DNA of 63,794 nt, the filler included, from Aduncisulcus paluster (taxonomy: Eukaryota), in assembly GCA_024181965.1 (NCBI GenBank). It is 11 parts of 11 records of this genome, joined end to end, with 100 filler letters (N's around TTAATTAATTAA, not from the genome) between each part and the next. Parts side by side here need not be neighbours in the genome. Positions count along the whole stretch, not along the records: positions 57,397 to 61,264 come from BQXS01011522.1; 10 more parts are not named here. One strand, written 5' to 3'. Positions 13,392 to 61,264 of the stretch are shown here, in pieces; the first letter of the stretch is position 1; each line of letters begins with the position of its first letter. Made by a program: the position numbers and the translations under genes. The notes below the pieces were generated by a model. The model ran no database searches. It was not told the origin of the DNA and saw only the letters and a program-made list of their open reading frames with translations.

Positions 13392-13491
13392 NNNNNNNNN
13401 NNNNNNNNNNNNNNNNNNNNNNNNNNNNNNNNNNNTTAATTAATTAANNNNNNNNNNNNNNNNNNNNNNNNNNNNNNNNNNNNNNNNNNNN
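13392..13491. other. Artificial contig linker N44-TTAATTAATTAA-N44 (also at 21968, 25445, 32854, 40498, 43000, 49970, 53095, 57297, 61265)
   Basis: Identical 100-nt spacer with six-frame stops repeated ten times; genes are truncated at it. Confidence 0.98.
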
Positions 13492-21967: not shown

Positions 21968-22069
21968 NNNNNNNNNNNNNNNNNNNNNNNNNNNNNNNNN
22001 NNNNNNNNNNNTTAATTAATTAANNNNNNNNNNNNNNNNNNNNNNNNNNNNNNNNNNNNNNNNNNNNAT

Positions 22070-57296: not shown

Positions 57297-57397
57297 NNNN
57301 NNNNNNNNNNNNNNNNNNNNNNNNNNNNNNNNNNNNNNNNTTAATTAATTAANNNNNNNNNNNNNNNNNNNNNNNNNNNNNNNNNNNNNNNNNNNNT

Positions 57398-58016
57398 TAG
57401 CTTTCCTTCTTTTCCTTTTGGTCATAGATTTGTCTATTTTCTCGAAATCTGTATATGTATCTAAATATAAACTGAAAAGGGGTCTAAAAAAAATAGGATT
57501 ATCAATGGTAAATGATCCTAAGAATCTTCCTGTAACGTGATCACTCTTCGACAACCATCGAGGCCTTGGAACAAGGAACTTCCATGTTGTTGTCGATCTA
57601 GCGCTCTCGAGTGAAACACCATCCCAAACTTCGAAAGAGATACCAAACAGTACACTCCTGCCAGGATCAATACCCACTAAGAGGGTTTTTGTGGGTTCAT
57701 CTGTGGTGATCTGTGCCTGAATCTGATTCAGCATACTATGCCTAGTACTAGCAGGGAAGGGAAGACATTTATCCCTTGTTGTCGCGGTAAGGCTTAAGTC
57801 GAATCCATCGGACTCGATATGGGTTGTGAAGCTGGTATTCAATGGCAACCCATATCGAGTCCGTATAAGATTCCTTATTCTTCTAGCCTTTACCTTAATG
57901 TACTTATTGTAAGTCTTCGTTGGCATATAGGTGTACAATGATCCGCCCTTGGACAACGAAGGGGTCTTATGAAAAGCCCATCGTTGCCCGAATAGATATC
58001 TGGTGGTGGTGTGTCT
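57398..58016 (-). mobile_element. Fanzor/TnpB-like RNA-guided nuclease fragment
   Basis: HIESDGFDLSL followed by LLVGIDPGRSVLF (RuvC-I) and FRPLFSLY...FEK...KRKRRKA. The frame is open from 58016 to the contig end. Confidence 0.6.
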
Positions 58017-58296
58017 TTATTTAATGTTGTTCAAATAAATTTTTACACTTATTTAATTATTTATATTTTATATTATATTTCACATCTGGGATTCCACATT
58101 AGATCCAGCTTCGCCAAATACTTGGAGAAACAGTAACCATATCCTTTCGCCAATGCTGCGCCAAGGGGAGCAAGTCTCCAGAATGAGGTTTGGAAGAGGG
58201 ATTTTTCAGAAACCGTGCTATCTTCAAACAAAAACAAACAAACAAGAATAGATATCTATTCCTAGTTGGCGAAATGCATTTTGATCACATTCCACA

Positions 58297-61264
58297 ATGA
58301 GCATGAAAATGAAAAAGAACAGAATATCTGTGTATGCCAGAATCAGACCTCTACTTTCAATCGATGAATCTCGGCAGATTGGAATTGAAACAACATCGAG
58401 TTCCTCTCTGATTGCCGGAGATTCGGCATGGAACTTTACCAATTGTTTTGGAAAAGATGCCTCAAATCAAACAATATTTCAGAACTTCATCCCGATGCTT
58501 GATCAACTCTTCAGTGGTATCAATGGTAGTGTTCTTGCATTTGGAGGGACAGGAAGTGGTAAAACAACCACTATTTGTGGATTTGACGATGGTCATGGTA
58601 ACATAACAACTCCTGGAATTATCCCCCTTTCGATAAAATATCTATTCGATCGTCAGAAGCTATTCAAACGGTGCTTATTCTCAGTATCTTTGTTTGAAAT
58701 ATATAATGAAGGTATATTTGACTTGCTGAATGATCGATCTAGCCTGTCAATACATAGTGTCACGTCTGAAAATGGGAATTCTTATGAGAAGATTTCTGGA
58801 TTAACCAATGTTCAGGTCTCTTCTCTTGAACCTGCCATGGAGTTATTTTTGAATGGTATTCAAAGGAAAAGTATGGGGGTTTCTATCGTTCATTCCCATA
58901 GCTCTCGAGCTCACACTATCTTCCGAATCAGGGTCGTAACGCAAGGTGAACACGGTCTGTCAATTGGGGAATTGGATATTTGTGACCTCTGTGGTAGTGA
59001 ACAGCTCATTGATGGTGCTGATTCAGAACAATCTCTTCAGACAAAATCCATTAATACATCCTTGCTCGCCTTATCTCGTGTGATTAGTTCCTTGGCTACC
59101 CGCTCTGCAGATCCTTCATCCAAGGAATACATTCCATACAGAGATAGTTGTCTTACACGTGCTCTAAGGAACACAATCGGAGGACAGTCAAACACTTGTA
59201 TTGTTCTAAACATTGCTCCTGCACTCGCTTCCTTACATATCAGCTTAAAGGCTCTTCATTTCGGTCAAACAGCAATGAAAGTGAAGCTTATGATCAAAGC
59301 TAATAGCATAAACTGGAAGAAAGAGAAAGAAATTACAAAAAAGAGTGATCAGGAAGATCTCTCAGAAAACGTTCAAAAACTCCGTCAGAGTATTGTAAGT
59401 GTTCGTTCTGGTAAAGATCTCACTGAAGGCAAAGTGGGATCATTTGTCGATGAAGGTTTGTTTCTCCTTGATGCCATGATATCCGGATCATACACTCCCC
59501 TTCGTGAGAGTACCTCTTGTTCCTCATCGGATAAAGGAGAGATATCATCTATCTGTTCCGTTGGGAAATACACGATTGTATATCGAGACGTGTATATTTT
59601 CGGACATCGGATCCGTATCACTGAGATTGGTAATCCTGCTTCAACTCCATTCTTTTCCGTGCATGGAACGTATTTCTTCCACGATGCTATCGATTTCTTC
59701 CCCTTTATTCCGGCAATCCTTCAGTGTGGATATAAATATATCGGTATTGATATGCCTGGTTTCGGTGGAAGTCCAGGACCTCGGCAATCTCTTCGAACTG
59801 AGGACTTTCTGAGTAGTGAGCTTCTCTCACACGTTAAGAAGACAAGATCATTGCCCCCAAATACCTTTTCCACTCCCTCTCACTCTTCCAATAATCAACA
59901 GACTGGTGGAAGGAGATGGAAAGGAAAGACGACGAAAACATCACACCATTCACTGACCTCTTCGGAATTAGGGTCACCGAGTGATATCGTATATGCTGCT
60001 CTGCGGTTGTATGGTGCTACAACTTCTCATCGAGCAATCATCCTTTCCCATGAGATGGGGGCTTCCATATGCATGCGTCTTTGCTGTGAACCCTGTCTTG
60101 GGAAGGTGGTTGGAACATTGTTCTGTCTCAACCCTGTGTGGACATGTGATAAAGCTCTTTTGAAACAAGGGAAGTGGACCAAATTCTCCAAGATTGTGAA
60201 ACGAATACAAGGAAAGCTCCCTTCTTTATCTAACCCATCAAGCTCAAGTAATTCCCCCAAGAAATCATTGTCTTCAACCAAAGTTGCTCTTGTGTACAAC
60301 TCAGCTGACATGTACTGCTCGCTTCCACTATGCAAGGCTATTGGAACCTCATGTGATGGGACAGGCATAGCTCTGAGAGTGAAAGGATTGCCGGAAAATG
60401 GAAGAGTATGGAGAGATATTTGTGTAAGTATCTGTTCCCTGATTTGTTCTTCCATACATCATTATAATCTCGTGGAATCATCCTCTCCCCATTCGAATCC
60501 TCCTTTAAAATTAACTGAGGAAGAGAGGAAGCGAGGAGAGGAAGAAGAGGAAGCTAAAAAAGAAGAAGAAGAGAGAAAGAGGAGAGAGAAGGAAGAGGAA
60601 GAGGCGGAAAGAGTGGATGCATTTGATCCTAAGGATATTGACAAATTATTTCAGCAGGCAATGTCGATGCAAATCTCATTTGGATGTGAAAATTCTGTCA
60701 TGTCCCCACAAGAATCCAAGAAGTTGAGTGATGAAGATAAGGTTTTCCTCATCATTCGTGAAGAAAAGAAAAAGTTTGCTCCTCTGATGGATTCCAAAAA
60801 TCCTTCTATTCGGATGAAAATGATGTATTCTGTGAGTATCTTGAAAAGAATAATTTCCAGCAAACTCCTCGATTTCTCCTTGAGTGCTTTATCATCCCAT
60901 CCCTTGAGATCTGTTCTTTTGCCCATATTATCTTCTTTACCTATTCTTCCTGCTCCTCTCGAAGTTCTGTCAGCTGTGGGACTGATTGATGCTCATTTGG
61001 AAGAAGAACAAGATAATGAGGCTTTCCTTGAAGCAAAATGTCACAAACATGCTATAGATCCCTTGAAGGCTCTTGAAGCTGCTTTGGGGGCTCCAATTGA
61101 GTCTAAAGGGTCTTCTTCTTCTTCTTCTTCTTCTACCTCTGCTCTTCTTCACCTCCCAGGGTACTTCATTGGCCGTCGTGTCCTTGCCAATCTTCCAGTT
61201 CTCTGCAATGTTCCCCACACTCCTTCGTGTGCCTGGTTAACCTTGCCCATGAAAGGCGAGAGTT
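58297..61264 (+). CDS. Kinesin motor protein fused to an alpha/beta-hydrolase-like domain (3'-truncated)
   Basis: VYARIRP, GGTGSGKT, EIYNE, SSRAH, DLCGSE, INTSLLAL and IPYRDS.LT; then SVHG...GYKYIGIDMPGFGGS...ILSHEMGASI. Confidence 0.85.

Follow-up and report, generated by a model that had tools for sequence, protein, structure and literature searches.

The minus strand of a 3868-bp contig of Aduncisulcus paluster (positions 57397-61264 of the window, i.e. of the whole 63,794-nucleotide stretch of DNA analysed here) ends in a stop-free frame, termed P0001, that carries the motif GIDPG and runs into the contig end. A. paluster is a fornicate and a free-living relative of Giardia. Based on sequence comparisons we put the probability at roughly 60% that P0001 is a decayed piece of a repeat that is specific to A. 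paluster and of Fanzor origin, with no sign of a working nuclease. Fanzors, the TnpB homologues of eukaryotes and giant viruses, are known to occur widely in both groups (PMC3627910; PMC10432273). The genome of A. paluster itself apparently holds a multicopy family of Fanzor type that is intact in appearance, and a likeness to this family at RuvC-I is one of three weak lines of evidence that agree on the assignment of P0001.

Translation of the minus strand recovered the frame described in the initial annotation together with all the peptides quoted there, i.e. FTTHIESDGFDLSLT, KTLLVGIDPGRSVLFG, FRPLFSLY and DFEKIDKSMTKRKRRKA, and both the closing TAA on the upstream side and the first Met, residue 31 in MPTK, were seen as described. 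Behind the Asp of the GIDPG motif, Asp 117, 89 residues remain in view, the last of which before the contig end read ...KSMTKRKRRKA. Judged by its relatives the frame is real coding sequence and not a chance one, because it matches the N-terminus of a longer A. paluster protein and is nearly identical to a third copy. The longer protein, P0002 (ADUPG1_012409, 565 residues), was the one longer relative to emerge when 5.8 billion proteins were searched via a word index. It shares 50% identity with P0001 over 180 residues (E 1e-44 across the database and 2e-54 in the pairwise comparison), the matching region of P0002 being residues 11-183. The third copy, P0006 (ADUPG1_013741, 125 residues), is encoded on another A. 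paluster contig of 19 kb and is 97.2% identical to P0001 over 106 residues. When 1.84 billion cluster representatives were scanned with a two-sequence HMMER profile, 12 proteins were matched at E <=0.001, all 12 from A. paluster, and relatives of the P0001 family were found neither among 41 pattern stretches from viral contigs nor among 161 from JGI metagenome contigs. With P0001, P0002 and P0006, the N-terminal module (N module; residues 1-170 of P0002) is, by these matches, present in at least three copies in the genome. The multicopy element proposed in the initial annotation is thereby confirmed, and its companion idea, that such a repeat caused the assembly break at P0001, is reasonable; we infer the same. 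Two sequencing runs contain the P0001 contig, with shares of 0.97 and 0.91; the second may be RNA, and no run recorded as RNA contains the contig.

The paralogues also bear on the gene structure. The models of P0002 and P0006 both start at positions that align with residues 7-9 of P0001, ~22-24 codons upstream of M31, and since both start there the short N-terminus is best read as a trait of the family and not as the result of a lost exon. The earlier suggestion that an N-terminal lobe was lost or lies in another exon does not hold, as the paralogue models begin at the same place as the P0001 frame. As P0001 has no ATG where both models start, its own start codon has probably been lost. In the gene model of P0006 an 80-nucleotide GT...AG stretch is skipped as an intron, which drops GIDPG and shifts the frame, so that the product ends in another frame. 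The corresponding DNA of P0001 encodes VGIDPGRSVLFGIS..., and P0002, although 50% diverged, has the identical residues there; thus, the stretch is or was coding and the intron of P0006 is doubtful. The comparison suggests that the intron is an artefact of gene prediction or, at best, spliced out optionally. Gene models of A. paluster were made with BRAKER2 and RNA-sequencing hints (PMC9933649).

The Fanzor-type family of A. paluster is represented by P0005 (ADUPG1_012987, 559 residues), which was met in a near-length search with P0002 and contains PF07282, the Cas12f1-like TNB domain, at E 2.3e-9 and above the cut-off. Further members with at least 90% identity are P0014 (ADUPG1_006906), P0015 (ADUPG1_011795) and P0016 (ADUPG1_013614), to which a broken copy, P0017, can be added. 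A regular-expression search found in P0005, P0014, P0015 and P0016 the Fanzor/TnpB motif as it is given in the main text of Bao and Jurka (2013, PMC3627910), i.e. D-X(125,275)-[TS][TS]-X-X-C4 zinc finger-X(5,50)-RD, here with D296, a 182-residue spacer and TS..C4..RD. For comparison with viral Fanzors, 57 IMG/VR viral stretches encoding DExYTSKxCxxC were collected, 42 open reading frames (ORFs) of which had a RuvC-I candidate 100-300 residues upstream, and a profile and hidden Markov model (HMM) were built from 30 of these giant-virus Fanzor ORFs. With hhalign, P0005 and this profile align colinearly along 404 columns (E 6.8e-6, probability 84.6%); the GIDPGR of P0005 pairs with xLDPG, its DEYHTSKLC with DEsYTSKtC and its HRD with DRD, and its pre-RuvC-I strand matches as well. 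A structure of P0005 predicted by AlphaFold2 reached a predicted local distance difference test (pLDDT) score of 30.9, too poor for a fold search, and a sequence search of the PDB with the family profile gave no match. The members already bear the label 'Cas12f1-like TNB domain-containing' in public databases. Fanzor genes of intact appearance do exist elsewhere in this species in the form of this family. The only long close relative of the N module, P0002, is a mosaic devoid of the TS-C4-RD tail.

The viral set further shows which features are general. The RuvC-I candidates of the 42 ORFs read xxDPG in 37 cases and xxDLG in five, while the exact GIDPG, which had been taken as the Fanzor RuvC-I motif, occurs once only; likewise, the strand pattern '(T/S)DG..(S)V', put forward as general for Fanzor1, does not appear in the consensus sequence drawn from the 30 giant-virus ORFs. 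Neither statement of the initial annotation is supported by this viral set in its general form.

Evidence linking the N module to Fanzors comes from pairwise, profile and embedding-type comparisons. BLASTP aligned P0001 with P0005 at E 4e-5 over 74 residues, from SDGFDLSL/SDQYKISV through TLLVGIDPGRSV/TLCLGIDPGRAV, and P0002 with P0005 at E 9e-5 on the same 22 residues. Smith-Waterman scores against P0005 were 62 for P0001 and 63 for P0002, compared to 33-34 +/- 5 for shuffled sequences, none of 500 reaching either value. As controls, six further proteins of A. paluster were compared in the same way, with no significant score among them (lowest count 25/500, P0001 vs P0013). The Asp of GIDPG, the putative first catalytic Asp, aligns with RuvC-I of P0005, with weak scores and with a peptide that also occurs in unrelated proteins. 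The giant-virus HMM placed both P0001 and P0002 at its positions 282-324, where the RuvC-I hairpin candidate TLLVGIDPGRSVLFGISFEVWD falls, with weak scores, on the DPG position (320); fragment shuffles scored as high in 1/300 and 0/300 cases for the two paralogues. The two strands predicted ahead of it, FTTHIESDGFDLSLTATT, align weakly with the pre-RuvC-I strands of the giant-virus profile. In the ESM Atlas, 20 of the 30 nearest clusters of P0001 carry DUF8286 plus the Cas12f1-like TNB domain (score 0.92, 149-155 shared features). For residues 1-175 of P0002, 22 of 30 carry DUF8286 (scores 0.97-0.98, which by the tool's own text ~1 in 100 shuffled proteins reach; 189-204 shared features), and these clusters stem mostly from Mucoromycota and giant viruses. 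None of the papers searched mentions DUF8286. Two further attempts were rejected: when P0001 and P0002 were aligned jointly with the P0005 family by MAFFT, the GIDPG motifs were misaligned and the alignment was discarded, and LYTYMPTKTYNKYI, considered as the N-terminal 'YPTKxQ' strand of TnpB/Fanzor, matched elsewhere in the Fanzor HMM when taken from P0001 (5/300 shuffles as good), the P0002 fragment giving no match to it (65/300 shuffles as good).

A considerable number of results weigh against Fanzor descent. Pfam searches with P0001, P0002 or their profile yielded no significant match, the best being DUF460 with E 0.23 on the GIDPG stretch, and sequence searches of PDB chains with the same queries gave no significant match either. 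The AlphaFold2 model of P0001 (pLDDT 31.8) is unusable for a fold search, and the Atlas model of P0002 has a pLDDT of 0.34. By hhalign the N module is paired with the P0005 family over 22 columns only (E 5.7e-4, probability 29.5%) and with the 30 giant-virus Fanzors at the correct position, yet with E 0.034 and a probability of 1.5%; the bit scores of the Fanzor HMM are tiny, 1.9-2.9, and 2/400 whole-sequence shuffles score higher. DUF8286 (PF26935) enters here as a label carried by the Atlas neighbours. The pattern [hydrophobic]GIDPG[R/S]xV was found in 40 viral stretches, none of them within an ORF that also has a zinc-finger motif of the TnpB type, and nine scanned ORFs that carry it include one terminase RNase H-like domain and one glycosyltransferase; PF07282 was seen in 0/5 viral records reached via these loci. 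As the pattern occurs in a terminase and in unrelated ORFs, the peptide alone is not diagnostic. The Asp lies only ~110 residues from the start of the N-module family, as compared to residue 296 in P0005 and ~320 in the giant-virus consensus, which leaves no room for a recognition lobe: ahead of RuvC-I, where P0005 has 295 residues and the giant-virus consensus ~319, the ~110 residues of the module do not hold WED plus recognition lobe. The [TS][TS]xxC4 zinc finger (PF07282) expected 125-275 residues after the Asp would lie past the contig end in P0001 and is absent from P0002, and the same is true for the RD of RuvC-III behind the zinc finger, which is outside the view of P0001 and absent from P0002 but present in P0005, P0014, P0015 and P0016; in none of the 12 HMMER matches does the N module occur together with a TS-C4-RD tail. 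For P0002, Pfam found no PF07282 and a regular expression no [TS][TS]xxC4...RD, and its two pieces related to P0005 differ in identity, 85% vs ~55%. The Fanzor/TnpB assignment made in the initial annotation therefore stands in part: it retains the RuvC-I match to P0005 (E 4e-5, 0/500 shuffles) and the DUF8286/TNB neighbours in the Atlas, whereas Pfam, PDB and the structure model add nothing to it, the hhalign comparison is weak and P0002 is without RuvC-II and RuvC-III.

In P0002, the N module is followed by a segment, residues 171-296, with matches to P0003 and to the A. paluster repeat-protein family P0009-P0013, which by its motifs may be a CACTA/Tnp2-like transposase family but bears no Pfam name. 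Residues 298-336, a piece of 39 residues, are 85% identical to the helix of P0005 just after RuvC-I and are colinear with the GIDPG of P0002 itself, and residues 355-440 match P0007, P0008 and P0012. Some of the proteins that match segments of P0002 carry pieces of DDE_3 or of reverse transcriptase. The difference between 85% and ~55% identity speaks for a composite P0002 rather than for a single gene that has diverged, and the composition of P0002 suggests nested or recombined mobile elements.

In the scenario that we favour, the N module would descend from a Fanzor/TnpB-type transposon gene, the ancestor of which may have been an RNA-guided RuvC nuclease cutting DNA beside its transposon, an activity that we propose for the ancestor only. 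The module would have kept the two pre-RuvC-I strands and the RuvC-I beta-hairpin with the catalytic Asp in GIDPG, perhaps also the first part of the basic helix following RuvC-I. The ~180-residue recognition lobe of real Fanzors would be gone, and so would RuvC-II, the zinc finger and RuvC-III, as judged from the long relative P0002. We infer both Fanzor descent and loss of function for P0001, which we read as a decayed, non-functional remnant since the lobe and the C-terminal motifs are missing, an ATG is lacking and the frame is cut by the contig end.

The N module could instead be a RuvC-like domain of RNase H fold that arose outside the Fanzors, for instance from a nuclease of the resolvase, YqgF, DUF460 or terminase type, with GIDPG reflecting the generic first hairpin 'hhhGIDPGxxxxG' common to these folds; we consider this improbable. 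The idea can draw on the DUF460 profile, which as best Pfam match covers residues 97-125 with 11.6 bits (cut-off 28), i.e. more than the Fanzor HMM gives, on the nine-residue pattern, present also in the RNase H-like domain of a phage terminase (L033, PF17289, E 1.8e-6), and on the fact that the significant P0005 match spans only 22 columns. In RuvC, RuvX and DUF460 the GIDPG motif is located at the very N-terminus. In the N module it follows ~110 residues in, after strands that align with the pre-RuvC-I strands of P0005. Moreover, the Atlas neighbours are of the DUF8286/TNB kind, with a Cpf1 RuvC cluster in 1/30 and no resolvase or terminase among the rows listed, P0002 holds a colinear piece of a Fanzor from the same genome, and, DUF460 apart, no Pfam model of RuvC, RuvX, terminase or another family of this type was matched at E <=10.

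It is likewise unlikely that P0001 belongs to a lineage-specific host family or is an orphan ORF from a different superfamily of transposons, in which case GIDPG would have arisen by chance or convergence and the model of P0002 would be wrongly fused. The absence of relatives beyond A. paluster from the 1.84 billion representatives, the viral contigs and the JGI metagenome contigs would fit, as would the matches of the later P0002 segments to several unrelated repeat proteins and the presence of an ordinary kinesin gene at a distance of 280 bp from P0001. Against this, the P0005 match beats 500/500 shuffles for both paralogues while six controls remain without a match, two independent routes, via P0005 and via the viral Fanzor HMM, lead to the same Fanzor position, and the Atlas scores of P0002 residues 1-175 are of a height that few shuffled proteins attain.

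Two readings that keep the Fanzor origin have still less in their favour. One concerns a strong hairpin inside the P0001 frame, the perfect inverted repeat of which (57809-57863) is the only one of at least 13 nucleotides in the 63.8-kb window that is not of low complexity. Its predicted RNA fold has -40 kcal/mol (z -8.05, 0/200 shuffles as stable), and an Rfam scan of 57397-58400 returned no family for it and two chance-level rows only. The arms encode RTRYGL and TTHIESD, which are identical between P0001 and P0002 in 5/6 and 7/7 positions and are among the best-conserved residues. The N module might be a new, short Fanzor derivative, domesticated or non-autonomous, that is kept or spreads in A. 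paluster, its hairpin then acting as a DNA or RNA signal in cis and not being a by-product; we regard this as a long shot. If true, the recognition lobe and the catalytic half at the C-terminus would be gone from the derivative, which would have kept the pre-RuvC strands, RuvC-I and the conserved, very stable 18-bp hairpin. Least probable of all is that P0001 is part of an intact, active Fanzor variant with a short N-terminus and its 3' half on another contig, as the frame that stays open through all 206 codons, the 97% identity of the second copy, suggestive of recent duplication, and the terminal KRKRRKA, which aligns with the basic residues that open the post-RuvC-I helix in P0005 and P0002, are set against the missing ATG at the paralogues' start position, the near-identical P0006, modelled as a 125-residue product with a frame-shifting intron and not as a long ORF, an N-terminus too short for a recognition lobe and 0/12 HMMER matches with the TS-C4-RD tail.

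The features of the P0001 contig and its surroundings are compiled in the table. The 12-nucleotide AGATATCTATTC at the 5' end of the frame recurs 260 nucleotides upstream at 58250-58261, in intergenic DNA and inside a 16-nucleotide palindrome; the pair may mark a repeat boundary or be due to chance. The 280 bp to the neighbouring kinesin gene are counted from the stop-bounded 5' end of P0001, and beyond the motor domain this gene has a weak alpha/beta-hydrolase match (PF00561, E 0.0024) followed by a long tail. The window consists of 11 contigs (2.4-13.4 kb, 35-41% G+C) joined by ten N44-TTAATTAATTAA-N44 linkers, e.g. at 13392-13491 and 21968-22067, with TTAATTAATTAA at 13436, 22012, 25489, 32898, 40542, 43044, 50014, 53139, 57341 and 61309. 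As the linkers are artificial, adjacency of features across them means nothing. The contig at 53195-57296 was considered as a continuation of the P0001 gene and rejected, since it encodes a Rav1p_C-like host protein, with long Ser and Lys/Glu runs, and the junction is such a linker.

Table. Features of the P0001 contig and of the adjoining part of the window; positions count along the whole window.
Feature	Position	Strand	Basis or remark
Rav1p_C-like host protein, open frame of 1367 codons	53196-57296	-	Rav1p_C E 5.1e-7; open at contig end
Artificial linker N44-TTAATTAATTAA-N44	57297-57396		Splits the P0001 contig from an unrelated contig
Open frame P0001, 206 codons	57399-58016	-	Stop-free translation; 3' side ends at contig end
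GT...AG stretch of 80 nucleotides, intron in the P0006 gene model	57598-57677	-	Model comparison
Candidate RuvC-I beta-hairpin TLLVGIDPGRSVLFGISFEVWD	57621-57686	-	22 columns align with P0005 residues 290-311
GIDPG	57660-57674	-	Asp codon (Asp 117) at 57666-57668
Two predicted strands FTTHIESDGFDLSLTATT	57782-57835	-	Align with pre-RuvC-I strands of P0005 (SDQYKISVSS)
Strong hairpin within the P0001 frame	57801-57873		Perfect 18-bp arms 57809-57826 and 57846-57863, 19-nucleotide loop, flanking pairs
First ATG of P0001, Met 31 (MPTK)	57924-57926	-	
12-nucleotide AGATATCTATTC at the extreme 5' end of the P0001 frame	57990-58001		Repeated at 58250-58261
In-frame TAA closing the P0001 frame on the upstream side	58017-58019	-	
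Neighbouring gene with kinesin motor domain	58297-61263	+	PF00225 E 1.6e-63; divergent from P0001, cut by the other contig end

The P0001 locus itself carries little weight, as it is a truncated, probably dead piece of a mobile element in a very fragmented draft genome. If confirmed, the P0005 family would modestly widen the taxonomic range of a known system and would provide divergent Fanzor candidates for testing. Metamonad taxon terms do not occur in the main texts of four Fanzor surveys (PMC10530073, PMC10432273, PMC10711439, PMC3627910), the supplementary tables of which may list the species; none of the papers searched names both 'Fanzor' and 'metamonad', and the fornicate literature searched does not mention Fanzor.

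Among known systems, RNase H-fold nucleases that start with hhhGIDPG, i.e. RuvC, DUF460 and the nuclease domain of the terminase large subunit, share the motif with P0001, but none has a significant profile match to it, and the position of the motif and the neighbouring strands fit Fanzor better. In comparison to Fanzor1-type proteins (Bao and Jurka 2013, PMC3627910; Saito et al. 2023, PMC10432273), the N module differs in that these have RuvC-II, zinc finger and RuvC-III, while P0001 is cut and its long paralogue P0002 is without them, and in that their Asp lies ~300 residues from the start as compared to ~110 in the N module; both the HMM and the HH comparison with them stay below significance. 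An omega-RNA region is not in view either, the 3' end of the P0001 gene lying past the contig break. P0001 and the Fanzor1-type have in common xxDPG, in P0001 a candidate first RuvC strand, two strands before the DPG motif, a basic stretch after it and a multicopy, transposon-like setting, with the Atlas neighbours in DUF8286/TNB clusters. The P0005 family is set apart from the N module by its ~290 residues before RuvC-I, by PF07282 and by D-X182-TS..C4..RD, and outside the motif the identity is at noise level. Nevertheless, it comes from the same species and shares with the module TLxxGIDPGRxVxxG.....D, in which 12/22 residues are identical to P0002, as well as the preceding strand SDxxxxSxxx, which aligns, and with P0002 it moreover shares the 39-residue piece at 85% identity.

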